A stretch of DNA of 64,000 bases from an uncultured Gammaproteobacteria bacterium (GCA_963848305.1 CAWKDC010000001.1:864001-928000); one strand, 5' to 3'; counted from the first letter of the stretch, positions 13,981-56,641 are shown. Notes: a model not told the origin generated them from the letters alone. Translations and numbers: made by a program.

Positions 13981-14520
13981 TTATGATAACCACTGTTCAC
14001 GGTACCAACGCAACTCATTGATGGACGCACGAATATCGCTCAAGGCACGGTGATCTTCCGACTTCTTCACCTGACCGAATAATTCAGGCCGCCAACGGCG
14101 GGCCAGCTCCTTAATGGTGCTGACATCAATGTGGCGATAATGAAAGAATGCCTCTAGAGCGGGCATATATCGCGCTAAAAATCGTCGATCCGTGCAAATT
14201 GTGTTGCCGCACATGGGTGACGCCTTTGCCTCTACAAATTGCGCTAAAAATGCGAGGGTTTGTTGTTCAGCCTCATGCTCCGTGACTTGACTGTCTCGCA
14301 CGCGGGCGACCAATCCTGAACCCGTGTGTTGGCGCACGCACCATTCACTCATTTGCTCGAGCAATGTATCCGATTGGTGGATCACCAGCTCTGGGCCGAT
14401 GCCAATTTCATTCAAATCGCTGTCTGTAACCAAAGTCGCGATTTCAATGATCCGCTCTTTGGTTTCATCCAAACCGGTCATTTCAAGATCGATCCAGATT
14501 AAATTGGTTTTTTTGTCCAC
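13981..14520 (-). CDS. orn: Oligoribonuclease
   Basis: [24 protein letters not shown] and HRALSDI motifs; GTG start. Confidence 0.96.
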
Positions 14521-14534
14521 GACAATCCTCACCC

Positions 14535-15277
14535 TCAATTTCTGTGCAATAAAGATAGCACAGTTTGACCCAGTAATGTCAGCTGAGGTTCAGAGGCCAA
14601 GCGGTGATCGCCCTGTTTGATGAGGGTGACATGCACGTCACTCGAGGTCAGTTGTTCAGAGATGCGCATGGCTTTTTGCCAGGTGACTTCTTTATCATTC
14701 ATGCCTTGCAATAAACGCACGGGACAATTGATAGAGATTTTTTTGTGAAGTAGGTTATGCTGTTTTGCTTCAGTCAAGAGTGTTTGTGCAATTGGATAGG
14801 GTTTTCCCTCAATGCCTGAAGGCACGTAACACATGCCTGTTTGTTCGAGTGATAAACGTTGTTCATCAGTGATCTTTGAAAAATCATCCAGAAAATCAGG
14901 AGCCGCAGCAATACCGACCAACGCCTGAACGCGCTCTGGCCGCGCCAATGCAGCCAGTAACATCAGCCACCCGCCCATGCTGGAGCCGACCAATATTTGG
15001 GGCCCTCGGTGAGTTCATCAATCACTTTCAGCGCATCGGTCAGCCAACGCCCCAATGTCCCTTCCACAAACTCGCCATCCGATGCGCCATGACCGAAATA
15101 ATCAAACCGCACAAAAGCATGACCCCATTCACGCGCCCTGGCCTCTAAATAGGTGGCTTTACTGCCCGTCATATCTGACTGAAAGCCACCTAAAAAAACG
15201 ATCCCTGGGTTCTTACCTTCCGTCTTTGCATAAGCAAGTCGCGTGCCATCAGGGTTCACGAGAAAAGTATTCACCAA
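14535..15277 (-). CDS. Alpha/beta hydrolase (ABHD10-like), split by an apparent frameshift near 15000
   Basis: N-half [12 protein letters not shown] and [11 protein letters not shown]; C-half GSSMGG nucleophile and GDHRL. One added C restores [12 protein letters not shown]. Confidence 0.85.
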
Positions 15278-15285
15278 TATGCGTC

Positions 15286-16744
15286 CTATTCGCCACCACC
15301 CAAAATAAAGATATCATTGGGAACATTAAAATTTGAATCCCCCGTGTACAGCGCACAACTGTCGTTAAGCGATCCATCTTCATTGATAGGACAGGCTGTG
15401 ACGGAATACTGCTCACTGCCCGACTCGCCCACTGGATTGTTATTAGAGATAAACAAATACCCGTAAAGAATGGTCAGCCCAGCAGGCGCACCCAGGGTAG
15501 AATAATCCGACGTACAACCTGCTGTGAAGGGTGGGTTACTACAATCGATAAACGCCCCAGAGGTTGGATCAATTTGGCAGCTGGTGATACTGGGTCCGTT
15601 CGTCACGGATGGGTAATCATTGCAGGTGTTGCTATAATCGCCATCGCTTGAAATATAGGCCATGGTACCATCCGTACTCAGCTCAATCGCGTCAGGTGAA
15701 CTTAAGTTACCACCAGCGCTGTCTTCTGTACAGTCCGAGAGTACGCCCGTTTCAGGATCCAGGTCACAAATGCTCACCGCATTATCGAAATAATCGGTGA
15801 CATAGGCCAATGTGCCGGCTGGATTGATCGCAATCGAATTGGGACCACTGCCCACATCGTTCGACACGACACATGCTTCCAATAAGCCGGTTGAAGGATC
15901 GATCGGGCATGCACTCACGGATTGAAATCCTCCGACCCCACCATTGACAACATACAAGATGTTATTGACTGAATCGACCGAAAGGCCGTTAGGATTAGAG
16001 AAAGTGGCGGTATCAGAACTGTCATTCCCCGTGCTATATTGACAAGGATTGTCAACCGTGCCCAATGTGTAGTCAGCTGGGTTCACCTCACAGATAGTCA
16101 CCGTTGTCCCTATATAAGGCGATTCGCCCCAGGCAAAATTAGAAATGTAGGCATAGGTTCCTGACTCGACAGTGGCTAACACGATAAATGCAGGGCCATC
16201 CAATGCTGCTCCAGGCCCTGTGGTGATGCTAGGCGTTGTACAACTGCCCACTTCTGTGGTCAGATCGCACAATGTAATGGTATTGCTTCCATAATTGACA
16301 ACGTAGGCAGGGGGATCTCCCGCAGCAACAGTCGTTTCAATGGTTTCTGTGACATTGAGTTGCCCAGAGGCACTAAGCACTAAATCACGATCCATGTCTC
16401 CGGGTGTACAAGGTTGAAAACTTAAGACAATGGTGCAAGTATCTCCGCCACCCAATGGACCGACCCTGTGGGCAAGTACTGTCAACCGAGTCAATCGTCA
16501 CTGCATCGGCACCTAGATCGTCGTTGTCATTGAGTGTGTATGAAATGTTAACCGCAACATCACGATTGTTGATAACGGTATAGTTTGCGGAATAGGGACT
16601 TGTACAATTGGATGTGGATAAGCCACTGATGGTCGGCGGATCTTGGAAGTCTACAGCACATCCAAATAATCCCGCCATGCACATGGCCTGAGCCAACGTG
16701 GTGAGTGACATTAACATCACTGCTAGGCATAATCTCATCATCAT
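15286..16744 (-). CDS. Secreted Cys-rich protein: Ig-like N-domain plus beta-propeller (paralogue C), frameshift near 16460
   Basis: Signal peptide; ADAVTID...TCTIVLSFQPCT shared with paralogue A; repeated AYV.N...V(S/T).C......G.L..C blades. Confidence 0.75.
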
Positions 16745-16896
16745 ACGCTCTCCTTGTCTCAAAAATTACCAGCATCCATTGCTATAAAAAATGTAGCGTC
16801 CGGCGACTATACCACAAAGATCAACGCTTGCAAAGCAAAAAGGATTTTTATATCCTATAATACCGACATCAACTCTACCCTGGGAAAGGCAACATA

Positions 16897-17439
16897 ATGA
16901 TTGAGCGCGATGATTGTGCACTACTATTGGTAGACATGCAAGAAAGATTGGTGCCTTTTGTCACTGATCATAAATCTTGCATCGAGCATTGCCAGTGGAT
17001 CTTAGAGGTTGCACAAGCACTGCGGATCCCCGTTTATACTTCTCAACAATATCCTGAAAAACTGGGCAATACGATCAAACCGCTGCACATCTTAATCAAC
17101 ACGGAAAACATCATCAACAAACTCGCATTTTCTGTGTACCGTCAGCCAGAGGGACTCACGAAAATCCATGCAAGCAACAAAAAGCAATGGATCCTCATGG
17201 GGATTGAAACGCATGTATGTGTGTTTCAAACCGCCATGGAATTAACAGCAGCAGGACATGAGGTGTTTGTGGTGGAAGAAGCCACACAATCGCGCAACCT
17301 TCATGACAAACTATTGGCCATTGAACGCATGCGTCAAACAGGCATAAGCATTATTTCCCGAGAAATGGCGGTCTTTGAATGGCTGCGGGTCGCAGGGACT
17401 CCTGAATTTAAGGGCATCATCGAAAAATTTATTAAGTAA
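16897..17439 (+). CDS. Isochorismatase-family cysteine hydrolase
   Basis: LLLVDMQE, QYPEKLG, GIETHVCVFQT and FEWL motifs. Confidence 0.9.
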   Translation: MIERDDCALLLVDMQERLVPFVTDHKSCIEHCQWILEVAQALRIPVYTSQQYPEKLGNTIKPLHILINTENIINKLAFSVYRQPEGLTKIHASNKKQWILMGIETHVCVFQTAMELTAAGHEVFVVEEATQSRNLHDKLLAIERMRQTGISIISREMAVFEWLRVAGTPEFKGIIEKFIK

Positions 17440-17451
17440 CGCAGTTATTCT

Positions 17452-18816
17452 TCATGGCGTGAATAATATATCACTCGGCGCACTAAAGCTTTCATCGAGA
17501 AGCGCCATACAAGACGAATCGATAAAACTGCCATCTGAAGGATCGAGTGAACATGTTGTGATGGTATATTCATCACTTCCATTTTCATCTAGATTGCTGA
17601 TATAGATAGTGTTACCTGCGATGAACAAACCTGCAGGATCAGCCAGCAGGCCGTTTGCATCATCTGCCATCGGCGCACAATTTGTCCCATTACAAATAGC
17701 CACCGTATTGTTGCCCCCATTGGACACATATACATTATTGAGCCCAGGAGCGAGACTGGTAGGACCATTCAGCGTGGGATCTGTTCTATTTTCAACAAAG
17801 ATCAAATTTCCAAAGTCATCGATTTCCATAATAGAAATATTGTTTGTCAGTGTGTTGGCAATCAGCGCTAAACCACCATTATTAATCACCACAATATCTT
17901 CCGGCGTAATGCCCAAAACTTCATCACCTGCAGGCGCAGTTGTGCAAGGCGCCAATGTACCATCTCCATTAATTCCGCAAATGCTGATGTTGTTGCCAAG
18001 CTTGTTTGCAACGTAAAGCAAATTACCCGATTCAACAACATTGACCGACATCCCATAAGGTTGGAGAAAGGTGACATCTGTCAGTTTTTCGCAAGTTCCC
18101 ATTTCACCAGGACCTGTGACTGGGCAAAAAGACACAGAGTTATCGCCTTGGTTGCTGATATATACATATTCTCCCGTCGGATCAAATGTCATGCCCCAAG
18201 GATTATTCAAAATATTGGTTGATGTATCATCGAGAATCGGAACCGGCGTACAAGTGGTTGAATCCACCGAGCCAGAACCAAATGTGCCATCGTCATTTAA
18301 TGGGCAATATGAAATTGAATTTGAGCCAGCATTCACAACATAAACATTATTATAACCACTGCCCACATCAGCGCTAATATCCCAATTCAATGGGCGTTGT
18401 ATGCTATTGGGCACAATCGTTAATGTATAATCAAGCAAACCCGTGGAACACGGCGCAAAATTCAAATACACCAAACATTGGGAAGCGCTGCCACCACCGC
18501 CATACAGCGTTACCATATTATTGCAACACGATGGCCCGCACCCGAGCCACATGCCATCACTGACAGCATTGTCTAGATTCGGTGTAACCGATAAACTTTC
18601 CAACATCACAGGAGCTGATCCAACATTGGTAAGTAGATAGGTGATGCCCACAGGGTTAGAACAGTTCAGCACCGTTAAGGGTGGGGTTGCAACTGGTGTG
18701 AGCACAAGCCCGCAAGGCCCCAAATCGTTTATGCACACATCCAACGCTTCTATAGCCTGAACAGTAAAAGGGATTATGATCACAACAAGTGCGAGTCCGT
18801 TTCTATACAATGACAT
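17452..18816 (-). CDS. Secreted Cys-rich protein: Ig-like N-domain plus beta-propeller (paralogue B)
   Basis: Signal peptide; YLLTNVGS...CLVYLNFAPCSTG; repeated VYV.N...NSIS.C......G blades. Confidence 0.8.
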   Translation of the reverse strand: MSLYRNGLALVVIIIPFTVQAIEALDVCINDLGPCGLVLTPVATPPLTVLNCSNPVGITYLLTNVGSAPVMLESLSVTPNLDNAVSDGMWLGCGPSCCNNMVTLYGGGGSASQCLVYLNFAPCSTGLLDYTLTIVPNSIQRPLNWDISADVGSGYNNVYVVNAGSNSISYCPLNDDGTFGSGSVDSTTCTPVPILDDTSTNILNNPWGMTFDPTGEYVYISNQGDNSVSFCPVTGPGEMGTCEKLTDVTFLQPYGMSVNVVESGNLLYVANKLGNNISICGINGDGTLAPCTTAPAGDEVLGITPEDIVVINNGGLALIANTLTNNISIMEIDDFGNLIFVENRTDPTLNGPTSLAPGLNNVYVSNGGNNTVAICNGTNCAPMADDANGLLADPAGLFIAGNTIYISNLDENGSDEYTITTCSLDPSDGSFIDSSCMALLDESFSAPSDILFTP

Positions 18817-18847
18817 AAGCTCTCCAACAGAGTTAAGTGAGCCCTTT

Positions 18848-20576
18848 TCATTTTACTGGGGTATACGGAAAATTCGCAATCCAGACAGAATCAGCCGTAC
18901 TGAACAAATCACTTCCCGTCGTGGTCACACAATCGCCAAACAATCCGCCAGCCATCAAAGGGCACACTGATACCGTGCTATCGGCTTGAGGCTGACACAG
19001 CAATGCACCATCCGTTGCGGGATATTCATAACCGTCCACACATCCATTGGGGATGTATGCATAAGACACACCATAAGGGGATAATCGATTGTTGGTGAAT
19101 ATATTGGTAGAATAAACATCAAAGTTAAATGTTCGATTCCCACTGCTGTCCAATCCCGCATATTTTTGACAACTCGTCAGTGCCTTACCACCGGGCGCGA
19201 TCTCACAAATCACCACATTGCCGCCAGGGATATTGGTTTGAGAAGCACAACCCGGATCGGATGCTGCACAGGGTTGTTTATCGTAAAAATTATTCGCTAA
19301 ATACAGATGGTTCCCGTCAGGACTGATATCAATCCCTTGTAAGAACGTGAAAAAGCTCGGTGAACCATACGCGATTTGACAATGCTGAAACCCACCAGGA
19401 TTAGTCGCATCATTATCCGGCAACACCTCGCAGATAGATACGTTGCTGTCATAGTACTTACCCGGATTACCGCCTGAATCATTCACAAAATTAGGCACAT
19501 ACACAATTTTACCATCCAAACTGAAGGCCATGCGTCCATTGGGTTGATTTAAAGTAACGATGCCATTCTGACCTGTCATCGAATCAAATGTACAACAATC
19601 ACTTGGCATACCTGGTGCATTCGGCGTGCAACTGCCAATGTCTGCGGGAGGAACTGTACGGGTTGTGCAACCATAGTCAATGTTGCAGTTACTCAATGAG
19701 CCATCAACGGGATTGATCGGACAAACGGCCACGGTTTGATCCGTCTCATTAGGGGGGTAATTACTATTCGTGGTATACAAGAAGGTATTGGCTGGATTGA
19801 TCCTGAGACCAGAGTCTTGCAAGATCAATGGGCTGCTGGTAAATTTGGTGCAAGGCTGCAGCAACCCATTTGAATCGACGTCGCAGACCGCAATGAATGA
19901 ATCAGTTGTTAAAGTCTGCTGCCTGGGCTCGCCTGGCAAAGGGATGGTTGGTTGAGGGACCCGCATTGGCGACGTAGGCAACGGTGCTATCGTTATTAAC
20001 CACGATATCAATTGGAGAATTAAAATAAACACCGCTCGAATCTAAGAAATTTTGGCACATGTCGAGGGAACCATCTGTTTCATCAACCCCACAAATGGTG
20101 ACCGCATCGCTGACATCGTCATTCGCAATATAGGCCATCTGGCTAAACACAGTGGACTTGATGTTCGCCACCAATGGCTTTTGGTCTGTGGCCTTCACCA
20201 CCAATTGACGGTTGATCGTACCCGCCGTACAGGGCTGAAAACTTAATACAATCGTACAGGTTTGTCCGTGTACCAACGTTTCATTTTCCTCACACGTACT
20301 CAGCGCATCATCGATAGTCACTGCGTCAGCAAGCAAGGAATCATGGAGAACAAGAGAATAGGTGATGGTTCGGGGCAAGGGAAAATCGTTGATAATGACA
20401 TAAGTATAGGTAAGCAAAGAAGGAGAAACGTCACAATTGGCAGTGGTTGTCACAGGACTGATCACGGGGGTAGATTCAAATGCAACGGCACATCCCGTGG
20501 AATTGTTAAAACAAAGGGCATGCGATACCGTGGCCAAGGCACATAACAAAACACTTCTCATGATACATTTAAACAT
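18848..20576 (-). CDS. Secreted Cys-rich protein: Ig-like N-domain plus beta-propeller (paralogue A), frameshift near 19960
   Basis: ORFs 19902-20576 and 18848-20032 join into one protein with a signal peptide, TCTIVLSFQPCT and C-x6-G-x-L-xx-C blade repeats. Confidence 0.75.
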
Positions 20577-20587
20577 ATTGACTCCCT

Positions 20588-21297
20588 TTAAAAGGCAACG
20601 CTAAAGCCTAATAACAATGCTTGTGAATGGATATTAAAGTCCTCAGATGAAATAGCCTGCGTATTTTTCAATGAAACATCCGAAAATGCAGCATACAAAT
20701 ATTCTGCCGTTAAGGCGACATCCTCAATGATCTCAAGACTCAAACCCGCACCCACTTCATAAGCAAAGTTTGAGTCTGTTTGTGCCTCAAGGACCACGCC
20801 AGGATAATACTGGTCTTCGTCTTGCGCGAAATCAATGTGATTCCAAGATGATCCGATCCCAACAATACCATAGAGGGAAACCACTTCGTAGCTGACAATG
20901 GTGAGTGCCACATCCATCATCAAACGATTGCTGATGAGCTGCCGATCTGGTAACTGACGTCATTGCAGTCAATGTCAAACTGACGATAACGATCAACATG
21001 TCCACTGATATTACCTTTAAGGTAATAATAATTAAATTGCGGTGCAATCGATGGGAACCAATGGGAGTTTTCCCATAAAGGAATGACATATGCAAGACCC
21101 GCCTGGCCTGTGCCTGCTTTCCATTGATCTTCATTGCCTTGAATGAGATTGTTGTCTTGCGTACTGGAAAGGCGCATCTCTACATTGCCCGTATCCAAGG
21201 CAGCGGTGCCGCCAGACAGCGAGAATTGCCAGTGAGACTCGGCAATTGCGGAGGATGAAACGAGAATCATTCCCGTTGCTAAAATCATTTTTTGCAT
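20588..21297 (-). CDS. Small outer-membrane beta-barrel (OmpA-TM/opacity-like), frameshift near 20930
   Basis: Signal peptide, amphipathic strands (SLYGIVGIG, FAYEVGAGLS, LTAEYLY) and C-terminal Phe beta-signal (LLGFSVAF). Confidence 0.8.
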
Positions 21298-21397
21298 AGC
21301 CTTTCCTTGGTCATGAAAATCTGCTCAACAAAGTATATCACAGCAATCCATTTTTACAGTATACTTCAATAATAAGCTCATCAGACAAGGAAACGCC

Positions 21398-21958
21398 ATG
21401 AACACGATGATTATTTTCGGCATACTCGCCCTCTTCTTTCTCTTTTTTATCATGCTCTACAACCGATTGGTTGCTTTGCGTCAAGCACGCAACAATGCGT
21501 TTGCGGATATTGATGTGCAGCTGAAGCTGCGTTTCGATTTGGTGCCAAACCTGGTCAATACCGTGAAAGGATACGCCACGCATGAAAGCACTGTATTTGA
21601 AAAAATCACGGAAGCACGGGCCAGCGTTGGACGCGCGCAGCAGGTCAATGATCGCATTGCGGCGGAAAATGCCTTGAGCGGTGCATTGATGAATTTATTT
21701 GCCGTGGCAGAGAATTATCCCGACCTGAAAGCAAATCAAGGGTTTCAACAATTGCAACAAGAATTGGCTGACATTGAAAACAAAATTGCCGCAGCTCGGC
21801 GATTTTTCAACAATGCAACGAATGAATTCAATACCTCCATTCAACAATTTCCTGCCAATTTGTTTGCACCTGCTTTGGGGTTTAAACAAGAACCATTTTT
21901 TGATTTGGGCGGGGATCGCGCTGAACATGAAAAACCGGTTGCCGTTAAATTTGATTGA
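21398..21958 (+). CDS. lemA: LemA family protein
   Basis: N-terminal TM, YNRLV, IDVQLKLRFDLVPNLV, ENYPDLKAN and FPANL motifs. Confidence 0.95.
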   Translation: MNTMIIFGILALFFLFFIMLYNRLVALRQARNNAFADIDVQLKLRFDLVPNLVNTVKGYATHESTVFEKITEARASVGRAQQVNDRIAAENALSGALMNLFAVAENYPDLKANQGFQQLQQELADIENKIAAARRFFNNATNEFNTSIQQFPANLFAPALGFKQEPFFDLGGDRAEHEKPVAVKFD

Positions 21959-22923
21959 TGGGAAATGTGCTCATGTCAGCAGGGATTAATACATACATTT
22001 GGAATAATAATTTGAAGAGCATATTACTATTGTGTGCTTTTCCATTTTTATTTTTCCTGCTTGATTTTTTATTTTTTTCGGGCATGGCCGCTATTTCACC
22101 CATGCCTATCAACGTCGATCCCAATCAGTTCATCGTGCAACAAGGCGTGTCGGGCTTGGCCAATACTTGGCATTGGGTAGTGATGGGTGTCGGCATCTGG
22201 TTTATCGTTGCGTATTTTTCACACAGTGCGATCATTCGCGCGGCCACGCATGCGGTGCCGCTCGCACGCAAGGATGCACCTGAGCTCTATAATTTGCTCG
22301 AGAATTTATGCATTTCCCGCGGTATACGCACCCCCAAATTGTTTATCATGGAAACACCTGCCATGAATGCGTTTGCCAGTGGGATCGATCAGGGATCATT
22401 TTCAATCACGGTCACACGCGGACTGCTGAACAACCTCAACACAATAGAATTGCAGGCAGTGCTGGGACATGAATTAACGCATATTCTCAATCGCGATGTG
22501 CGATTGCTGATTGTCAGTATTATTTTTGTGGGGATCATCAGTTTTTTATCGAACATGGCTGTGCGCAATATGCTATTCATGAATCGAGGCAACCGCAATC
22601 GTCGTGAAGGCGCTGCTGTCTTGGTGGGGATGATGGTCTTGGCGATCGGTTATGTGTTGGCGATCCTCATTCGTTTTGCATTATCACGTCGCCGTGAATT
22701 CATGGCGGATGCCGGTGCAGTGATGCTCACTAAAGATCCGGATGCCATGATATCTGCCTTGCAAAAGATCTCTCGCCATGCGGAGATCCCGGGCGTGGCG
22801 GGTGAAGTGAAGTCCATGTTTATTGAAAACCCACCATCAACTTCTTTTCTGGATTGGTTTGCGACGCATCCGCCCATTGAGGCGAGGATAAAAGCATTGA
22901 GGGAGATGGGCGGGGGATTGTAG
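21958..22923 (+). CDS. M48 family zinc metalloprotease (HtpX-like)
   Basis: NAFASG, HELTH, SRRREFMAD and FATHPP motifs; TGATG coupling to lemA. Confidence 0.92.
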   Translation: MGNVLMSAGINTYIWNNNLKSILLLCAFPFLFFLLDFLFFSGMAAISPMPINVDPNQFIVQQGVSGLANTWHWVVMGVGIWFIVAYFSHSAIIRAATHAVPLARKDAPELYNLLENLCISRGIRTPKLFIMETPAMNAFASGIDQGSFSITVTRGLLNNLNTIELQAVLGHELTHILNRDVRLLIVSIIFVGIISFLSNMAVRNMLFMNRGNRNRREGAAVLVGMMVLAIGYVLAILIRFALSRRREFMADAGAVMLTKDPDAMISALQKISRHAEIPGVAGEVKSMFIENPPSTSFLDWFATHPPIEARIKALREMGGGL

Positions 22924-23764
22924 ACGAACATAATTGCGTTATCAAATCATGTTCTTTCACCCTTTTGGGGATATCATCGTCAACAAATAAGACAGGTGGA
23001 TCATCATCATCATCTTCATCGTCAATACCGTTCTCATCACCATCGTCGTCTTTGATTCCTTCATTCAGGAGTGAAGCCATCGTTACAGCTTTTTTTTTAT
23101 CTAGATCAGCAGAATCCTCCTTACTCCACCGCATCACCCACATTGGCGCCATGGTTACCACCGTGCCCACGCCCGTGACCAAGGGGGAGATGAATCCTCT
23201 GACTAATTTATCAAGAGAAGAACCTTCTTCAGCGCCTATCCATTCCGGTGTCAAGTAGCCGACGTACCACATAAACCCGCCCATAAAGAGGCTCGCAGCC
23301 AATAATGTATATGTGCCAGGGTTTGCTTTGACTTCGCTCCAGCCATCGTAATAAATATTGTAAGCCATGGACAATGCCATCGTGCCCAAACCGGCGTAAG
23401 CGCCTAAAATAAGACCATTAGTCTCTTCACCCATCAAAAAGAAAGCAGGCAGAAAACCTGACATCCATCCAGCAATGCCAATCACGATACTGGCGGCGAT
23501 GTACTGATCATCCTTTTTCTGTGCTTCCTGCTCATCTTGTTCTCGACAGTGCTTCGAATAATAACGTGCCCCTGCATAAGCCAAGCCCGCCAACACGAAC
23601 GGATAAATGAATAAATTCGTGAACAGATCTGGCGACAGTGTCCCGATCATATGCTTTTCAGTAAAATGAATATCCACCTCTTGGTTAAAATATTGCCAGC
23701 CCACGTCGGCAAACACGGACATGGAAGCAGCTTTGGCGATGTTTAACTCTGTGATTTGGGGCAT
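22820..23764 (-). CDS. Hypothetical multi-pass membrane protein with an acidic tail
   Basis: Long ORF with about 6 hydrophobic segments and a DDDGDENGIDDEDDDDD run; paralogous to the upstream gene; the 3' end overlaps the M48 protease gene and is uncertain. Confidence 0.65.
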   Translation of the reverse strand: MPQITELNIAKAASMSVFADVGWQYFNQEVDIHFTEKHMIGTLSPDLFTNLFIYPFVLAGLAYAGARYYSKHCREQDEQEAQKKDDQYIAASIVIGIAGWMSGFLPAFFLMGEETNGLILGAYAGLGTMALSMAYNIYYDGWSEVKANPGTYTLLAASLFMGGFMWYVGYLTPEWIGAEEGSSLDKLVRGFISPLVTGVGTVVTMAPMWVMRWSKEDSADLDKKKAVTMASLLNEGIKDDDGDENGIDDEDDDDDPPVLFVDDDIPKRVKEHDLITQLCSSTIPRPSPSMLLSSPQWADASQTNPEKKLMVGFQ

Positions 23765-23799
23765 TTTAACTCATGTACCAGGTTTTAAAATAAGTGTGA

Positions 23800-24628
23800 C
23801 TAATGCAAATACTCAGGCGTGCACTTTTCTTGAATATACTCAGTTGTCTTATGATGGCCATAAAGCATCGTCGCTGTGCCCACGGCGGTAAATAAGGGTG
23901 CAAAGAGCCCACGTGCCACTTTATTCCACTGCTCCTCATTGCCGATACCCTTATCCATCAGGTGTTCACCTATGCCAAAATCGGATGCACAAAAACTGAT
24001 ATACCACAAAAAGCCAGCGCCCAGGGTGAAGAGTGCCATGGACGCGCGGGTTAAGCGCTTTCCGTTTTCTGTGAGTGCGATATAAGGTTTAATCTCACGC
24101 TTTTTATTGTCCATTTGTTTTTCTAAATAGAGATAATGGTATAACCCTACTGCCAATGCCGAGCCAACACCTACCAGTGCACCCACGGCCAGCATGGTAT
24201 GCCAATCCTCTGTGGGTACCCAGTCTTCAGCCACCAGCCCAAAAGCCAGATCAGCCACATAGTAGCCTGCGGTGCCAGCCGACCATGTCAATACAAGCCC
24301 AAGTCGCAATTTGCGCATTGGAAATGTTGGCTGATTTTTTGTCTTTATTTAACCGATTGATCAACGCGCCCATGGCCCAGATCACGCCCAAACCAATGGC
24401 AAAAGGATACAATATCGCCGTCACATCGGTGCTGGCAAGTTCCCCTGCATTGGGATGGTCTTCGCTCAGTTTGTAATCTATCCATTGGGCACAGACTTGC
24501 CAGATCACTGCGCTCAGGATCAGGAGGATCTCGGGTTTATGATCAGCTAAGAATGTCACCGCAGTGTTATCTGAGCTAGATATAGGTGCTACCTCAAAGT
24601 CATTTCTGGAAATCTCTTCACCCCGCAT
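23800..24628 (-). CDS. Hypothetical multi-pass membrane protein, frameshift near 24285
   Basis: Two ORFs join; shares WQ...(I/L)YPF and F(L/M)WY...K(V/L)(A/V)RG...PL.T.VGT motifs with 22820-23764. Confidence 0.6.
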
Positions 24629-30999: not shown

Positions 31000-31055
31000 T
31001 TTTTTCGCTAAAGTAGCGTATGCTTATCTCAATAAACTTGCACGAGACATTTGTC

Positions 31056-32122
31056 ATGGAAAAATTACCCCTCTTTAGAATCATCTTCATCATCATTGGC
31101 ATTGGGTTGATCGGATTTGGATGTCTGCTCATTGTGCACCCATTTCTCCCGGCCATGTTACTGGCCGTTATTTTTTGCCTGGCCACCTGGCCCGCATTCA
31201 GTATCATCGAAAAAAAAGTCGGTGGCCGCAGTTGGCTAGCAGCCCTCATCATGACTACCCTGTTGTTCCTCGGTTTTCTGCTTCCCCTGGTTTTCTTGGG
31301 GTCTAGCCTAGCGGACAGTGTCATGCAATTTGTTAAATTCGTTGTAGATGCCTTTAGGGAAGGGCACGGCCAAGTACCTGATTGGGTCTCGCGTTTACCC
31401 CTTTGGACACAACAATATGTCAAGGATTTTTGGGCGAACTATCTGAAAAGTGGGCAGCAAATGGTGGAAGGCTTAACCAAGCATGCTGGGCCTTGTCGCA
31501 ATATGCCATTTATGTTGGCAGTAAAATTGGTCACGGGTTTGTGGATTTGTCATTAGGGCTTTTCATTTCATTCTTTTTCTTCAGCTATGGCGCACAAACT
31601 GTTCAACGCATTGGTATCTTGATGGAGCGGATCATCGGCCAACGGGGCTTGTATCTCTTGCAAATCACCAAAGATACATTGATCAGCGTGATATACGGTG
31701 TCCTCGGCACTGCATTAGCGCAAGGCGCTGTTGCTGGCATTGGCTTTTGGATCGCCAATGTGCCTGGTGCGACCTTTCTGGGATTTGTGACAATCCTCAT
31801 GTCACTCATTCCTGGCGGGCCACCCATTATCTGGATCCCCGTCACTATTTGGCTTTTTCTGGAAGGTCATCTTGGCATGGGGATTTTCATGTCAATTTGG
31901 GGACTCTTTGCCATCAGTGGCGTTGACAACATATTACGACCCTATTTCATCAGCCTGGGAAGTGATTTGCCCCTTTTATTGGTCTTGCTGGGCGTCTTGG
32001 GCGGATTACTGGCTTTTGGTTTTATCGGACTCTTTATCGGCCCAACCCTGTTGGCTTTGGCTTACACGCTTATCCTTGAATGGAGCCACGAGGAAGAAAG
32101 ACGCCTGGAGCCCGAGGCTTGA
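31056..32122 (+). CDS. AI-2E family transporter (YdiK-like), frameshift near 31490
   Basis: PFLPAMLLAV, TALAQG, DNILRP and GVLGGLLAFGFIGLFIGP motifs. Confidence 0.88.
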
Positions 32123-36314: not shown

Positions 36315-37037
36315 TCAAAATGTATATGAGAGCAGGAAAACAAGCTCCTGTGTGGGCGTATGATCATTCATGAGGGTCGCGCCCAGGTTACCCTGATTAA
36401 AATCCCCTAAAGACACTTTCCCCAAATCGCTGAATTGATAACCCAGACCAACACGCATGTCATCTATCACGGCTACTTCTAGCCCCAATCCTAAGGTGTA
36501 GGTGAAAGCGGTGTAAGTGTGATCCTCAAAGTTCCCATTGGCGAGGGTGCGTCCATTGAGTGCAGTTTCTTGGTAATTTTTTGCTTCATTGAATGCAACA
36601 CCTAAACCTCCCATGAGGTACCCAAACAGTCGATCAGTCATCTCCCATAGATATTTGTTCTCAAACAGGAGACGTTGGCTGAAGACTTCATAGGAATACC
36701 GAATATTGCCTTCATCGGGTAAAGAATAGGCATAACGAATACCTTCGGTTTGATAAGGATTTGGATTGGCGTAATAGGAAACGCCCGTTTGCCAGCGCAT
36801 GGTTTCTTGATAAAGGTCATATTCAGGCCCAATAAAAACACCCAGCAGCAAGCGTGTTGACGTGGCTTGTGTGGTGTCGAAAGCATCAGGCGCGGGTTCA
36901 TGCTTGACCAAAGCAACACGGTTATCGTGGCCCACTTCAGCCCAACTCGACCCCAATCGACCAGAAAAGACAAGCCCCGCAGTGGCGTCCAGCGCCAGCG
37001 GGGCAAGCAGGAAAGAAAAGTATATCCCTATACGCAT
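36315..37037 (-). CDS. Small outer-membrane beta-barrel (OmpA-TM/opacity-like)
   Basis: Signal peptide; YLMGGLGVAFN, FTYTLGLGLE and VGLGYQFSDLG strands; C-terminal LSYTF. Confidence 0.85.
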   Translation of the reverse strand: MRIGIYFSFLLAPLALDATAGLVFSGRLGSSWAEVGHDNRVALVKHEPAPDAFDTTQATSTRLLLGVFIGPEYDLYQETMRWQTGVSYYANPNPYQTEGIRYAYSLPDEGNIRYSYEVFSQRLLFENKYLWEMTDRLFGYLMGGLGVAFNEAKNYQETALNGRTLANGNFEDHTYTAFTYTLGLGLEVAVIDDMRVGLGYQFSDLGKVSLGDFNQGNLGATLMNDHTPTQELVFLLSYTF

Positions 37038-37090
37038 GGTTGACAATCCTTTTAAAACTCAGCGCCCCGAAACGGCACTGAGCTTCAATA

Positions 37091-41855: not shown

Positions 41856-43219
<1,364 letters not shown>

Positions 43220-52746: not shown

Positions 52747-54317
52747 CTATTGCTCACGAAACACAGCACGCGTACTGGTGACCACGCTGCCTGACGCAGC
52801 ATCAATGCTGACGACACGGCCATAACCAGGGACTTCATCGCCTGGAATCACGGTGATCAATTCGCCCCGCTCGGAGCGCAGCCATGCTCGACCAGGGATG
52901 ATGGCTTGCACCATCATTTTCACAGGAGAAGGTTCACGCATATGAGAAGCTTGCGTATTTTCATTGATGGCACGTTGTTGTTGACCCACGATATTCGTTT
53001 GCGTGACCACATCTTCCTTAAGACCTTGCACCTCACTGTTCAACAAACGCACTTGTTGTTGCAATTCATTGATGCGATCCAATTTGGTATCGAGTGCCTG
53101 CATTTTCTTGACCGCAGATTCCAGCGTTGCTTGCATGCCAGGTGTGCCGTTCTCCGTTGACAAGCGGTCTAGCCGTTCAGCCTGTTCCGTTGGTGTCATC
53201 GCCCCGGTACCCACTTGTGATAAACGTTGATCAATCGATTGCAATGCCATTTCCAATTTATCCAATTTCTCACTCACATCTGTGGTTGCAGGTGCGGCCA
53301 TTTCGTTAGGTTGTGGTTGGCCGGCGCATTCACGAGGGTACCTGTTGAAACCACTTCGGGAGTTTGTGCCGCAGCATGCACGACTGTGCCAGGGACAACC
53401 ATTTCTGTCATCATACCTGTTGAAGGAATCGTCACCGTGGGTTGCACACTGGGTAACCCTGAAGTCACACTGCCAGGCACCGGCAAATTGCTGGGCGTTG
53501 CTGCGACCACTTCAGGGATAGGAGTTACAGCCACCTCAGGCCTTTGTGTGACAGGAGCTACAGCTCGCACAGGTTTTGCAGCGGCTACTGCAGGAATAGG
53601 TTTGTGGATTTCAGCCATTTCTACTGGTTTTTCACCCAAAAAGAATTTCAACCCACCATATATCATGAGGGCTAATACCAACATCACGCCCAATCGCGCT
53701 GCGATGCGTTTCAGATCAGGCGACTTTTTAGCTGGAGGAGGTGTTTCATCCGCCATGCCGATGTCACCCAACTCGGGCTCTGCACCGCCGATGTCTTCAA
53801 AACTGGCTTCAGATTGAGGCTCATAATCAAACAAGGCATCATCACTCAATGATTGACCGGGTTTTTCTTCTGGAAAATCCGCGTTCATGTCCCCAAAAGG
53901 ATCCGGTGACGTGGTTGGCGTTTTAGGGGGTGTCGATGCGGCGGTATTATCAGCAAATAAAGCTTCAAATTCTTCACCACTCGGGATATTGGCTTTCAAC
54001 TTTTTCGGCGGCAAAGGTTCATTGGGGCTGTCAGCAAACAGTGCATCAAATTCTGCGCCCGTGGGAATACCTTCTTTTGATTTTTTAGGAGGGAGCGGTC
54101 CGCTCGGGCTATCGGCAAACAACGCATCAAAATCTGGATCTGGTGGCGTATCAACCTTTTTGCTTTTGGCTGCTTTCTTTTGAGGCACAGGCGATGACTC
54201 TGTGTCTGAACCGAGATCTTTCAGCAAGTCGTCTAGTGAAGGCGCCGTTCCAGTGTCACCGAATAAATCCGTTAACTCGGAGTAGTCCTCAACTTTCTTT
54301 TTGTCATCGTCAGTCAT
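52747..54317 (-). CDS. icmG: T4BSS IcmG/DotF, frameshift near 53320
   Basis: Acidic N-region, single TM, coiled coil and C-terminal VQAIIPGRAWL...VPGYGRV...G.V.TS. Confidence 0.85.
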
Positions 54318-54366
54318 AATGTGCCCTATTTCATAACGGTAAGTTTAGCATCTATTCTCATTGCCA

Positions 54367-56641
54367 TCATTGATAGCCCCCTAATGCGCCACCTTGACTG
54401 CTTGTCAACGTAGCATCTTTGGATAAGCGCGTTGAAGCAGCAGATTTAATCGGCATGGCCGGTGTTGTTGGCGGTGCAACTGGCGCAGGTTTTTCGCCCG
54501 GCGCTAATGGCGCATCCGCGCGCAAGGGTTTTTCACCCGTTGTAGGCGGTTGCTCGATTTTCAAATCAGACATGATCAACAAACCCACCCCTGTGCCACT
54601 GTCCAAAGTGACGGTCGGTTGAATGTTTTTCTTTTCCAAATCGTCCCCAATAGCTTGCCCCACTTTACCCAAACCAACAATGACTTGATCACGTGATGTC
54701 GCAGGCACTTGGCTGGCGATGGTCGCGCTGCCATCTGATGACAACGTGGGCGTTCCTAAACTGGTTTCCACGGCTTCCCCCATTCCTTGCAAGAAACTGG
54801 CTGCAATGATGGTTCCGTATTTTTCCAGCGTATGATTGTCAACAGACGTCGCCACACTGGTGCGAGACGTTTCGGGATCTACAGCAACCGCATCAATGGC
54901 AATACTTTGCGGCACTTCAGGCAAGCTGAGCACGTTGAATCGCACGAACAAAACTTGATCTTGACGTTGGAATGTCCCCATGATCCGCGCACCCTTCAAA
55001 GGACCTTCTGATACTATCCTCGCCAACACAGGACCTGGATCATCACTGTTCACTGACGTGTCGATCACAGCGAATAGCATGTCACCCGCTTTATGAACGA
55101 TGGGTCCTTGACCTGCCGGCGGCAACCCATTGACATTGCCCGGCGCTGCGGGCGGTGTTGCCACAATTTCAGGTGCGATGCCGCGCACATACATCTGCGT
55201 AGGGTGCCCATGTTTGCATGATCGCCTGCGCTTGTGAATTCATTAAATTTTCATACGCCGCCAGTCGCGCTTGCTGATCCGCTAACGCTTGCGCATGTTG
55301 TTCTGCCGTCAACTCTGCATTGCGTTGTTCTTGCAATTTTTGTTGCTCAGCGATCAATCGTTGATACTCTGCTGCCGCACCTTGAGCGGGATTGATATTA
55401 GCATGCCCACCTTGGCCGGGTGACAAAGAAGAAATCATTTCGTGTACACCGCCCGGTGCAGGGCAAGGATTCCCCTGACGATCAACCCCTTGGCGGTTGC
55501 AGCCCAAACGGTTGTAGCCATCTTTATCGTACCCATCTTTATCATACCCTTGCTTATCGAAACCATCTTTATCGTAACCGTTTCTATCATACCCCTGTTT
55601 ATCAAAACCGGCATCGTTGTATCCTTTCGCATCGTAACACGCTTTGCCAGATCGGTTTAAGCCTTGCTTGTTGCATCCATTTTTATCGAAACCATCTTTG
55701 TCATACCCGTCTCTGTCATAACCGTTTCTATCGACACCTTCTTTGTTATAACCTTCGGCATCAAATCCTTCTTTATCCATGCCAAATTTATCAACACCTG
55801 CCGCATTCAAACCATCGATGTTATAGCACGGCTTACCATTTTTATCATTCCCTGCTTTATTGCAGCCATTGCGATCGAAACCATCTTTATTGAAGCCGTC
55901 TTTGTCAAATCCACATTTATCATACCCTTCGGCGTTGAAGCCCTCTTTGTTGTAACACACCTTACCATCGGGATCTAAGCCGTCGCGATTACACCCATTG
56001 GCATCCAATCCTTGCTTGTTGAAACAGTCCACACCGAAAGCTTCAGCACAGGGTTTACCCTGGCGATCGAATCCTTGACGGTTACAACCATTGCGATCAA
56101 AACCATCTTTGTCATAACCAAAACGATCGAACCCTTCTTTATCGAAACCATTCCTGTCAAACCCTTGTTTGTCAAAACCGTTTATATCGTAACCGTCTTT
56201 GTCGTAACCTTTTTTATCAAACCCCATCGCATTGTAGCCATCGCGGTTAAACCCTTCTGCATCAAATCCCTTTTCATCGTAACATTCTTCCCCGCAACGT
56301 GCTTCCCCCAGAATACCAAAGCCTTCACGGTTATATCCCCCCTCTCCTTGATTGATGAGCGAGGGCACAGCGCTGGTGGTACCTGCTAAGGCTGCTCTGG
56401 CTTTTTCTTCATTCGCCAAGGCAACGAGGGGATCGTACACAACGCTGGGCGTGCCGGCACCTGGCAATGATTCTAAATGGGGAGACACACGTTTTGTGCT
56501 AGATTGACTCGCCTCAATCACACTGGGGGCACTGCGCGTGCCAAACCAAATCGCACCAATGGCAATCACGATCACGACCAGCACAACGACGAGCAGTGCA
56601 CGTGATTTCATGTTCCCAATTTTCTCGAATAGGTTTGCCAT
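54367..56641 (-). CDS. icmE: T4BSS IcmE/DotG (VirB10-like), frameshift near 55200
   Basis: N-terminal TM, pentapeptide repeat region and TrbI-like C-domain (KAGDMLFAVIDTSVNSDDPGPVLA, VDNH, ASFLQG). Confidence 0.9.
55462..56290 (-). repeat. Coding 15-nt (G-x-D/N-x-x) tandem repeat within icmE
   Basis: About 46 GFD/GYD/GCN-type pentapeptides in 5 Cys-capped blocks. Confidence 0.9.

Follow-up and report, generated by a model that had tools for sequence, protein, structure and literature searches.

Organization of the barrel-cargo cassette

Does a gene for a small outer-membrane beta-barrel, followed by genes for three paralogous secreted proteins, mark a two-part system that fixes proteins at the cell surface? 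The question is raised by a cassette within a 64,000-nucleotide stretch of the genome of an uncultured Gammaproteobacteria bacterium, and this whole stretch is called the window below. The barrel gene and the three cargo genes (A, B, and C) all lie on the minus strand, where the first-pass annotation had placed them. Three of the four (barrel, A, and C) are not open in the window as given, each being split by a frameshift. The N-terminal piece of the barrel gene is an ORF of 125 aa (20920..21297) that starts with the signal peptide MQKMILATGMILVSSSAIA followed by the subfamily motif W.F..GG.AALD. Its C-terminal piece (20588..20923, 111 aa) terminates in EDFNIHSQALLLGFSVAF, the last residues of the protein being LGFSVAF with the C-terminal Phe described earlier, and the frameshift stretch between the pieces (20921..20955, minus strand) was translated in three frames. 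The gap of 11 nt between the barrel stop (20588) and the ATG of cargo A (20576) was also found as claimed. Cargo A is made of a first piece of 224 aa (19902..20576), containing a signal peptide, an N-domain (about 20519-20139), and propeller blade 1, and of a second piece of 394 aa corresponding to a Cys-rich propeller (18848..20032). After a gap of 31 nt comes cargo B (17452..18816), which is intact and encodes 454 aa with a signal peptide, an N-domain (residues about 26-153), and a six-repeat propeller. Finally, cargo C comprises a first piece with the signal peptide and the initial two thirds of the N-domain (16385..16762), and a second piece of 402 aa with the N-domain end (TCTIVLSFQPCT) and the propeller (15286..16494). 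A and B had been said to be followed by C in one series. Paralogy and strand are as described, but a gene of the isochorismatase family (16897..17439, plus strand; PF00857, E 8.1e-24), which lies outside the module, interrupts the run of cargo genes between B and C, making C a separate transcription unit. In agreement with the annotation, the cargo N-termini look like Sec signals that lack a lipobox, and profile scans of A, B, and C gave no barrel family match; no C-terminal sorting tag was seen at the ends of the three proteins.

A conserved Ig-like N-domain precedes variable cargo domains

The motifs quoted earlier for the N-domain are all present: A and C both carry ADAVTID and TCTIVLSFQPCT, which in C stand on different reading-frame pieces, and B carries CLVYLNFAPCSTG. 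BLASTP comparisons gave 39% identity between the N-domains of A and C (E 3e-16, first piece of C), 25% between that of A and B (1e-8), and 28% between C and B (E 1e-18, second piece of C), and by this measure the paralogy of the three proteins is genuine but distant. The first piece of cargo A matches profile A1 with an E-value of 5.9e-52, and its N-domain shares 40% identity with the N-domain of a cargo from a metagenome locus (L062). In the AlphaFold2 model of B, the N-domain is a beta-sandwich. With the N-domain profile, 4251 proteins were retrieved at E <= 0.001, with giant choice-of-anchor-D repeat proteins on top. Conversely, 11 of 36 N-domains matched NF012200 at E <= 0.01 (best 3.2e-9); at its curated cut-off of 45 bits A, B, and C had no match, and a paralogue on contig C3 reached 21.2 bits (E 3.1e-4). 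The Atlas neighbours, taken as a lead only, are HYDIN/VesB/ASH clusters at 0.89. The N-domain thus appears to be a divergent, cysteine-containing branch of the choice-of-anchor D/ASH-type Ig domains, its likeness to choice-of-anchor D (NF012200) and to HYDIN/VesB/ASH (PF22544, PF15780) coming from weak profile matches and Atlas neighbourhood, which fits the ASH/PapD-type fold suggested from the first reading. Unlike in choice-of-anchor D proteins, it usually occurs as a single copy, follows immediately on the signal peptide and is linked to a barrel gene.

Behind this constant domain, the cargos vary even more widely than had been noticed: lactonase-like, BNR, and WD40-like propellers, ice-binding-like helices, thaumatin, and Big_2 domains were found. 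What follows the N-domain differs from cargo to cargo but is rich in disulfides and of a type found outside cells, whether propeller, beta-helix, or thaumatin. B and C match PF10282 with 47.8 and 30.1 bits (cut-off 21.7); the propeller of A has no match to this family, and it is 27% identical to B (BLASTP, E 2e-6). The AlphaFold2 model of B (pLDDT 78.8, pTM 0.71) has 23 strands beyond residue 155, and the propeller contains six [YL][VIL]xN repeats, not seven. Foldseek matched it to YWTD, NHL, lactonase, and YVTN propellers, with lactonases as well as six-bladed YWTD and NHL propellers in the top group.

The barrel-cargo adjacency is conserved

For the linkage census, we took the barrel loci found with E <= 1e-56 in 12 genomes of the window's order (28 loci) plus the window's own; 28 loci were assessable, L086 being left out, as were 13 weaker barrel rows beyond the window's two pieces and two loci of genome G002. 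An N-domain gene abuts the barrel gene on the same strand at 23 of the 28 assessable loci (21 downstream and 2 upstream), a count that overstates independence since a single genus contributes six genomes in which many of the loci are orthologous. The other five (L064, L077, L083, L088, and L090) have no detectable N-domain neighbour. Where start codons could be read, the two genes either overlap or lie up to about 33 nt apart. Starting from the N-domain, 6/9 genes abut a PF13505 barrel in a whole-genome test of five relatives, and as a specificity control the final N-domain profile matched 15 of the 7513 ORFs of the window's whole genome. More pairs were found in metagenome loci L062, L069, and L070. 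Outside the order, 5/9 assessable loci are paired, spanning four other gammaproteobacterial families, and the profile did not recognise the downstream gene of the remaining 4/9. A single barrel with several cargos recurs in five loci (L089, L091, L093, L095, and L098). Each of the 12 genomes of the order has either both barrel and N-domain (9 genomes) or neither (3 genomes). The adjacency proposed by the first-pass annotation is therefore strongly borne out in other genomes: one or more same-strand cargo genes abut the barrel gene, downstream in most loci. The pairing is not obligatory, and to this extent the first reading was overstated. Two N-domain genes of the window's genome, A and the gene at C1:1062478, are the only ones that abut a barrel of the subfamily; B and C belong to the cluster of A, and 9 of 13 N-domain genes have no such barrel near them.

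Could barrels and cargos simply be co-transcribed envelope or surface genes that duplicate jointly in variable "surface-protein islands"? PF13505 matches number 23 in the window's genome and N-domain genes at least 13, and the neighbours of N-domain genes elsewhere in it include an usher, SCPU pilins, and barrels of another subfamily; on contig C4, two of the nine genes without a subfamily barrel adjoin four such barrels of a different subfamily. Barrel and N-domain divergences are correlated (Mantel r 0.516; 0/2000 permutations as high), as is expected from co-inheritance or co-duplication alone. Against mere co-transcription, the adjacency is limited to one barrel subfamily, one orientation, and abutting distance, and it is kept across five families despite the exchange of cargo ends. 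Complex prediction also argues, weakly, for a coupling of the two proteins. Barrel plus N-domain scored 0.46, 0.50, and 0.46 in three runs, while the best control scored 0.00; the runs shared >= 92% of contacts and the partner pLDDT was >= 82. The mark passed by these scores is reached by 116/157 solved complexes and 2/215 mismatched pairs, but at <= 0.60 by only 18 of those solved complexes plus both mismatches, a band described for the tool as wrong oftener than right unless the pairing is likely a priori. The tool called this weak support and returned no interface, and the interaction implied by the earlier reading is putative. Altogether, we consider it unlikely that the genes are neighbours without any coupling.

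A lineage-specific subfamily within the OmpA/NspA/PagN class of small barrels

The C-terminal piece of the window's barrel matches PF13505 (OMP_b-brl) with 33.7 bits (cut-off 28.7), compared with 40-48 bits for intact relatives, and the N-terminal piece alone has no PF13505 match. Both pieces match the subfamily profile A6, at positions 4-133 (E 7.6e-35) and 129-253 (E 2.0e-36), respectively. They are also colinear with the intact 234-aa relative P0182, the first with residues 1-117 (47% identity) and the second with residues 124-234 (45% identity). The barrel is one of a lineage-specific subfamily, of about 235-260 aa, of the small OmpA/NspA/PagN-class barrels, and the members have conserved N- and C-terminal motifs in common. 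Pfam scans of the barrels gave PF13505, PF01389, PF03797, or SPOR and nothing else, this last being an N-terminal peptidoglycan-binding domain carried by some members. No longer relative with barrel and cargo fused was found, which is weak evidence.

The model of P0182 (pLDDT 90.6) was compared with known structures by VIA-align. The best matches were the Legionella Dot/Icm "porin III" (Z 19.4), NspA (Z 18.8, 154/155 residues aligned), and OmpA (Z 17.1, 134/137 aligned), with OprF-N and OmpW (Z 15.9) also among them. CarO (Z 14.1), AlkL (Z 12.3), an OmpT-type barrel (Z 10.8), and the BrkA autotransporter barrel (Z 8.0) came lower. The predicted fold thus fits best the small 8-stranded OmpA/NspA/OmpX class, the DSSP string of the model having nine strand elements and the count being 8 or 10.

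The matches to OmpW, CarO, and AlkL raise the possibility that the barrel is a channel for small solutes or hydrophobic substrates, to which a docked enzyme or binding protein would deliver its product or ligand. Several cargo ends are enzyme-like, such as the lactonase-type and BNR/sialidase-type propellers, but an enzymatic nature is not obvious for the ice-binding-like, WD40-like, thaumatin, and Big_2 ends. Moreover, the closest Atlas clusters of the barrel are the adhesin/invasin barrels PagN, Hra1, and Opacity. A role in uptake is in our opinion quite unlikely.

The first-pass annotation had proposed that the barrel exports or anchors its cargo. Under the export reading, the cognate barrel would give the cargo its passage across the outer membrane, within or beside it, in a type V or two-partner style, with the N-domain as recognition signal. 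As in two-partner secretion, a conserved N-terminal recognition domain follows a Sec signal, the functional rest is variable and a barrel gene is the neighbour. One subfamily member, P0166, passes the autotransporter beta-domain family PF03797 (27.9 bits, cut-off 26). The order of barrel, Ig-like domain(s), and C-terminal binding domain is that of inverse autotransporters, and the SPOR domain of some barrels recalls the N-terminal LysM carried by intimin. The structural comparison speaks against export, since the model fits the small 8-stranded class (Z 16-19) better than the OmpT-type or BrkA barrels. In addition, the barrels contain no POTRA or periplasmic domain save SPOR in a few, the cargos, as large propellers with several disulfides, would be expected to fold while still in the periplasm, and numerous N-domain genes have no barrel. 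We regard export through the barrel as very unlikely.

The known type V systems were rejected one after the other, in line with the misfit that had been pointed out. In two-partner secretion (type Vb), TpsB is a 16-stranded Omp85 barrel that also has POTRA domains, and the fold of the TPS domain is a beta-helix, whereas here the barrel has 235-260 aa and matches 8-stranded barrels, and the N-domain is Ig-like; scans of the barrel gave neither POTRA nor Omp85, and profile scans of the N-domain gave no TPS match. In a classical autotransporter (type Va), an N-terminal passenger and a C-terminal 12-stranded PF03797 barrel form a single chain, whereas here the barrel has a gene to itself, the cargos have no barrel family match, and the Z-score to BrkA is low. 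Inverse autotransporters (intimin/invasin, type Ve) are single polypeptides with a 12-stranded barrel whose pore is threaded by a linker; here barrel and cargo are encoded separately and both have a signal peptide, and no intimin-barrel match was obtained in Pfam scans.

The barrel as a putative surface anchor

In our preferred reading, the cassette exemplifies a conserved module in which the barrel is the cognate surface anchor of separately exported cargos, and we put its chance slightly short of even. The barrel would be inserted into the outer membrane via BAM, as its C-terminal aromatic residue suggests. The cargo would cross the inner membrane by Sec, then fold and form its disulfides in the periplasm. 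Its way out would be a different one, with the type II system encoded in the genome as the likeliest candidate; a GspD secretin is found there (531.9 bits, cut-off 351). At the surface, gene linkage and the complex prediction with its weak support lead us to propose that the cognate barrel protrudes on the extracellular side and that the N-domain binds to this part of it non-covalently, holding the cargo there, so that the barrel would be an anchor rather than an export channel. The displayed cargos might serve adhesion to hosts or particles.

The barrel model would also be relevant to which side of the membrane the cargo occupies. Judged by its strand spacing, it appears to have long hairpins opposite the termini and short turns on the terminal side, which would leave little barrel surface on that side. 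This is difficult to reconcile with a cargo that remains in the periplasm, bound to the periplasmic face of the barrel in a TolB-Pal-like envelope complex. Such a location would agree with the Sec signal being alone, no outer-membrane export signal being recognised, and with the fact that beta-propellers are common in the periplasm, for example TolB and PQQ enzymes. Nevertheless, the ice-binding-like, BNR, thaumatin, and Big_2 families are typically extracellular, and the N-domain also terminates a 2737-residue IPT/TIG repeat protein resembling a surface adhesin. A periplasmic complex is therefore very unlikely as well.

Returning to the surface-anchor reading, no published description of the barrel/N-domain pairing was found in the literature, and the recurrent adjacency suggests a so far undescribed mode of surface fixing in Legionella-like environmental bacteria. 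The broader proposal, that this is an undescribed envelope system of Legionella-like Gammaproteobacteria in which dedicated small barrels recognise a dedicated N-terminal Ig-like "address" domain and display at the cell surface, or help to export, interchangeable cargos of propeller, beta-helix, and thaumatin type, is possible but leans to the doubtful side. If true, it would be a non-covalent, barrel-based counterpart to sortase, PEP-CTERM, and type IX (T9SS) anchoring, and the N-domain could be reused as a surface-display tag.

Comparison with other barrel-associated systems

T9SS is known only from Bacteroidota and involves a C-terminal signal domain, a PorP/SprF barrel, and transport by the T9SS translocon. 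Its cargos with a type B C-terminal domain are reported to be anchored by cognate PorP/SprF-like outer-membrane barrels (PMC9143113). The proposed module is alike in its variable cargo with a conserved targeting domain, in a cognate outer-membrane barrel gene that adjoins the cargo gene, and in a barrel that would anchor the cargo at the surface and not transport it. It differs in its occurrence in Gammaproteobacteria, its N-terminal Ig-like domain, and its PF13505 barrel of the OmpA/PagN class, and Pfam/NCBIfam scans of barrel and cargos gave no match to the T9SS families PorP/SprF and type B CTD.

The small adhesin/invasin barrels OmpA, NspA, Opa, PagN/Hek/Tia, and Ail (PF13505/PF02462/PF01389) share family and fold with the barrel. 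They act via their own loops and, to our knowledge, have no co-encoded cognate secreted partner, unlike the present subfamily, in which both the terminal motifs, peculiar to it, and the downstream partner are conserved. The DUF560 barrel of Slam (type XI) has 14 strands and is accompanied by TPR repeats, and a C-terminal barrel domain is the means by which its lipoprotein or hemophilin-like cargos are recognised. There too a barrel gene adjoins the gene of a surface cargo, an adjacency that served to find new cargos, but none of the DUF560 barrel, TPR, lipoprotein or hemophilin-like cargo, and C-terminal barrel domain features is present here. Chaperone-usher pili were rejected, as neither an usher (PF00577) nor a PapD-like chaperone gene is among the ORFs of 14535-21297.

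The frameshifts of A and C are private to the assembly

The split genes were compared with contigs from independent soil and wetland metagenome runs that are >= 99% identical to the window. One base at position 16462, in cargo C, is absent from the contigs of 3/3 covering runs. One base at 19956, in cargo A, is absent in the single covering run, and its loss in this independent contig puts both pieces of A into one frame. In the split neighbouring hydrolase gene, an extra G follows 14998 in the contigs of 3/3 covering runs. Because these one-base differences fall exactly at the sites in A, C, and the hydrolase, the frameshifts there are errors made in assembly, private to this one, and not signs of decay. 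The barrel site at 20921-20955 is outside every metagenome contig piece listed, and the window's own barrel may be truly broken in the strain. It is extremely improbable that the cassette as a whole is a decaying cluster in a genome under reduction, as three frameshifted genes out of four and a fourth, likewise split cargo paralogue on contig C3 could suggest, given the otherwise near-identical contigs with their differences at just those sites, and given that housekeeping genes (purA in the window and tilS on contig C3), icmK/dotH, and the AI-2E transporter gene of the window are also interrupted, a pattern that indicates indels introduced by the assembly.

Reading frames and gene layout of the cassette

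The cassette (21297-15286, minus strand) consists of a gene encoding a small outer-membrane beta-barrel (21297-20588), hereafter the barrel, and three genes encoding exported proteins, the cargos A (20576-18848), B (18816-17452) and C (16762-15286). All four genes reported by the first-pass annotation are present, but it had read silently across frame breaks in three of them: only B is open in the window sequence as given, and the barrel (21297-20920 and 20923-20588), A (20576-19902 and 20032-18848) and C (16762-16385 and 16494-15286) each lie in two minus-strand pieces. D, a fourth paralogue on contig C3 of the same genome, is likewise split. Using Pfam profile coordinates, we identified further split genes: an alpha/beta hydrolase gene next to C (14535-15277, two frames with consecutive coordinates), an AI-2E transporter gene (31020-32122, profile positions 2-130 and 131-326), purA (41856-43210, positions 1-253 and 252-416) and icmK/dotH (56642-57563, positions 1-98 and 100-236) in the window, and tilS (G000:C3:49723-50915, consecutive coordinates again) on contig C3. 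Screening codon usage for frameshifted pairs of genes gave no discrimination, ordinary neighbours passing as well.

Metagenome runs from soil and wetland, belonging to several studies, contain DNA nearly identical to the window, and contigs of four such runs were aligned to positions 14500-21400, all pieces being at least 99% alike. The base at 16462 was missing from the metagenome contigs in the three runs that cover it (3/3), the base at 19956 from the contig of the one covering run (1/1), and an additional G followed 14998 in all three covering runs (3/3). At these positions the reading frames of C, A and the hydrolase gene, respectively, are shifted. Since the independent contigs differ at these sites, the frameshifts of A and C are assembly errors and both genes are intact in the population. 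Pseudogene decay of the cassette, according to which the broken frames would be genuine, is highly improbable and was rejected, the independent contigs differing by one base at the frameshift sites and keeping A and C in frame. This comparison covers the sites of A, C and the hydrolase gene, that of the barrel (20921-20955) lying in no listed piece and some bins being uncovered in every run. Because both pieces of the barrel align colinearly with P0182, an intact 234-residue relative (residues 1-117 at 47% and 124-234 at 45% identity), we read them as the halves of a single gene. In the window, the assembly apparently contains one indel error in about every 9 kb, which is to be allowed for in any gene-level reading of this genome.

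Between the barrel stop (20588) and the ATG of A (20576) there are 11 nt, and 31 nt between the stop of A and the start of B, while an isochorismatase gene on the plus strand (16897-17439; PF00857, E 8.1e-24) separates B from C. Judged by this spacing, barrel, A and B look like one unit and C like a separate one. Spacing is the basis here because promoter-like sites (20 versus 13.5 +/- 3.6 in shuffles) and terminator-like sites (7 versus 6.2 +/- 2.5) were both at chance level.

Cargos share an N-terminal domain followed by variable ends

The paralogy of A, B and C put forward in the first-pass annotation is real, but distant (25-39% identity). The model of B (454 residues; pLDDT 78.8, pTM 0.71) predicts a beta-sandwich at about residues 33-152 and then a propeller. 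B carries six [YL][VIL]xN repeats, its best Foldseek matches were YWTD, NHL, lactonase and YVTN propellers, and Pfam assigned both B and C to PF10282. The cargo proteins are cysteine-rich, with 18 Cys in B. A homologue search with B alone was insensitive: it retrieved 12 proteins from a set of 5.8 billion, found matches in 6 of 41 related genomes and missed A and C in their own genome at E <= 0.01. Aligning whole proteins against genome contigs gave four loci from archaeal and unrelated MAGs, with 30-37% identity over parts and no convincing relative among them.

We then considered the domain that directly follows the signal peptide of the cargos (N-domain). When its alignment was searched against 1.84 billion representative proteins, 4251 matched at E <= 0.001, the top ones being giant proteins with up to 48 copies; two of these were scanned and both were choice-of-anchor-D repeat proteins (E 8e-256 and 2e-152). 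Moreover, 11 of the 36 collected N-domains matched NF012200 at E <= 0.01. Pfam gave only faint ASH-type matches, and the Atlas neighbours were HYDIN/VesB/ASH clusters at 0.89, taken as a lead only. By these matches the N-domain appears to be a divergent offshoot of a known Ig-like superfamily, in agreement with the Ig-like fold that had been guessed from the sequence.

Behind this constant domain, the ends assigned by Pfam vary among loci. They are lactonase-like propellers in the window and at loci L098 and L099, BNR/sialidase-like propellers at L053, L054, L055, L060 and L101, a WD40-like propeller at L056, ice-binding-like beta-helices at L057, L069 and L096 (E 2.4e-61 at L096), a thaumatin end at L106 and a Rax2/kelch-like end at L059.

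In the genome of the window, an iterated profile detected the N-domain in 15 of 7513 ORFs, corresponding to about 13 genes: A, B, C and D, the C-terminus of a 2737-residue IPT/TIG protein, four tandem genes at C1:335-343k, two genes on contig C4, and single genes at C1:46759, C1:114155 and C1:1062478. The open frame of the IPT/TIG protein (L003, G000:C1:321936-330149) has IPT/TIG repeats (PF01833, E 2e-64 on the last 627 residues) with the N-domain at its end, and is directly followed by two spore-coat-U (SCPU, PF05229) pilin-like genes (G000:C1:320760-321871). The four tandem genes, each combining an N-domain with a BNR-like end, are located beside an usher gene (PF00577; L051, G000:C1:332516-343359) with no subfamily barrel nearby; three of them, about 2.1 kb apart, gave identical E-values and bit scores in profile searches.

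Barrel and N-domain genes are paired across genomes

The barrel is a PF13505 member (Pfam). In the 5.8-billion-protein set, 45 protein clusters fall into its lineage-specific subfamily at E <= 1e-5. Named rows of the subfamily are Legionellales or Gammaproteobacteria MAGs, and the proteins are called 'outer membrane beta-barrel protein', 'opacity protein-like surface antigen' or 'hypothetical protein'. Barrels adjoining N-domain genes in relatives have the motifs W.L..GGIA.LD (N-terminal) and DFD...Q..LLG.RFA[FL] (C-terminal) in common with that of the window.

The adjacency of barrel and cargo noticed in the first-pass annotation proved to be enriched in other genomes. Starting from the N-domain, the un-iterated profile gave 10 rows for 9 genes in the whole genomes of five relatives, and six of these nine have a PF13505 barrel gene directly next to them in the same orientation. 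Starting from the barrel, the subfamily is present in 9 of the 12 species genomes of the order. We counted 28 loci with E <= 1e-56 plus that of the window, one being at a contig edge and 13 weaker rows being left out. An N-domain gene abuts the barrel in 23 of the 28 assessable loci (21 downstream, 2 upstream), with gaps ranging from overlapping to about 33 nt. With about 13 N-domain genes in 1.9 Mb, a hand estimate of the chance expectation is far fewer than one abutting pair. As in the window, a single barrel with two or three cargos recurs at several loci. Metagenome loci L062, L069 and L070 are additional pairs, L062 being the closest relative of the barrel-A pair (N-domains 40% identical).

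Outside the order, among 400 sampled genomes of the class, the barrel was found in six genomes of four other families, and five of nine assessable loci have a profile-significant N-domain gene directly downstream. At the other four, the downstream ORF (419-692 residues) has a hydrophobic, signal-peptide-like start and was not reached by the profile; Pfam matched lactonase, Big_2 plus BNR, and thaumatin in three of them and nothing in the fourth. In all 12 genomes of the order, barrel and cargo are either both present or both absent, related genomes not being independent. Pairwise identities of barrels and N-domains were correlated over 33 pairs (Mantel r 0.516, reached by 0 of 2000 permutations), with r 0.307 among pairs whose barrels are less than 60% identical. 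This correlation shows that barrel and N-domain genes are passed on and duplicated together, which does not in itself prove co-evolution. None of the 8000 candidates scored was a fused barrel-cargo protein, a weak piece of evidence.

A second pair occurs in the same genome (L050, G000:C1:1061673-1062990), in which an intact 266-aa subfamily barrel is followed, 5 nt away between stop-to-stop frames, by a 170-residue frame holding only the N-domain (E 1.4e-19); this frame may be truncated by another assembly indel. At G000:C4:10946-18905 (L049), four tandem OmpA_membrane-type barrel genes are divergent from two N-domain genes (670-680 aa). None of these barrels belongs to the subfamily at E <= 1e-10, and the arrangement may represent another type of association with barrels, or a coincidence.

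Fold of the barrel and predicted complex with the N-domain

The P0182 model, built with 39 homologues (pLDDT 90.6, pTM 0.83), was compared structurally with 48,161 solved chains. The best match was the Legionella Dot/Icm 'porin III' (9nh2_A; Z 19.4, 189 residues aligned), then NspA (Z 18.8, 154/155 residues aligned), a Thermus outer-membrane protein (Z 17.1), OmpA (Z 17.1), PagL, OprF-N and OmpW; OmpT-type barrels (Z 10.8) and the barrel of the BrkA autotransporter (Z 8.0) ranked lower. 'Porin III' was observed in situ around the Dot/Icm machine of Legionella, and its likeness to P0182 is structural. Atlas neighbours were PagN, Hra1 and Opacity adhesin barrels. DSSP assigned nine strand elements to the model, which suggests 8 or 10 strands. 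As modelled, the barrel is of the small anchor type, without room for a polypeptide. A few subfamily barrels (at L096, 2977-4053, and P0194, P0196 and P0204) bear an N-terminal SPOR (peptidoglycan-binding) domain, which recalls the LysM domain of intimin.

For the complex, mature P0182 (residues 19-234) and the N-domain encoded next to it were folded together, an alignment being supplied for each. Scores in three runs were 0.46, 0.50 and 0.46, compared with 0.00 in all three controls, at least 92% of the contacts agreed and the partner pLDDT was at least 82. Of 157 solved complexes, 116 attain the score mark, as do 2 of 215 mismatches; those attaining it at <= 0.60 are only 18 of these complexes and both mismatches. 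The verdict on the complex, whose prediction the first-pass annotation had proposed as a check, was 'weak support', with no interface given. We read the prediction as modest support for binding because the linkage gives a strong prior.

A candidate surface anchor and its alternatives

We tentatively favour the barrel as a cognate surface anchor for the cargos, for which we infer binding, location and route alike. The cargo would be exported by Sec, would fold and form its disulfide bonds in the periplasm, and would cross the outer membrane by a type II system (GspD is found in the genome at 531.9 bits). It would then be kept on the surface by docking of its N-domain to the hairpins that protrude from the cognate barrel. 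Against this reading, the loci are not independent and pairing is not obligatory, since 5 of the 28 barrels have no N-domain neighbour and 9 of the 13 N-domain genes in the genome of the window stand alone. That the genes are co-regulated while their products do not interact we consider unlikely; the complex scores point, weakly, the other way. A capture-and-uptake pair is less likely still. Export of the cargo by the barrel itself would fit their adjacency, and the modelled barrel lacks the room for it; we regard this as improbable. To the same degree we doubt a barrel-cargo complex that stays in the periplasm.

The pair resembles, in its logic of a cognate barrel and cargo, two-partner secretion and Slam with its cargos; the pair lacks the defining features of both. 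The closest in logic are the type B CTD cargos of the T9SS anchored by adjacent PorP-like barrels (PMC9143113), whose defining features the pair lacks too. The cognate arrangement is already known, and the parts found here are unrelated to those of two-partner secretion, Slam, or PorP with type B CTD. A literature search, most subscription journals being outside it, found no published description of the barrel/N-domain pairing, and we hold it possible, with some doubt, that the pair is a distinct, undescribed surface-display system. To our knowledge, few cases are known of surface retention of Sec-exported, non-lipidated proteins in Proteobacteria without sortase-like sorting. If true, a cognate barrel and address domain would add a general solution to this, a rule to predict the surface proteome of uncultured Legionella-like bacteria and a compact two-part surface-display tag. 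With a short address domain (about 115-125 aa) and a small barrel, the module lends itself to direct testing.

Other genes in the window

Dot/Icm-type type IVB secretion genes are located at 52747-57563, encoding IcmK/DotH (PF12293) and a TrbI/DotG-like protein (PF03743), so that the organism is Legionella-like and probably host-associated. Uncultured Legionella-like bacteria have Dot/Icm systems and are presumed to live in protists. Another small barrel gene (36315-37046) scores 27.9 bits against PF13505 (cut-off 28.7) and weakly matches the subfamily profile (E 1.8e-9). Finally, three adjacent minus-strand ORFs at 22820-24628 encode proteins of 314, 172 and 125 aa without a Pfam match, the first of which has a long acidic tail.
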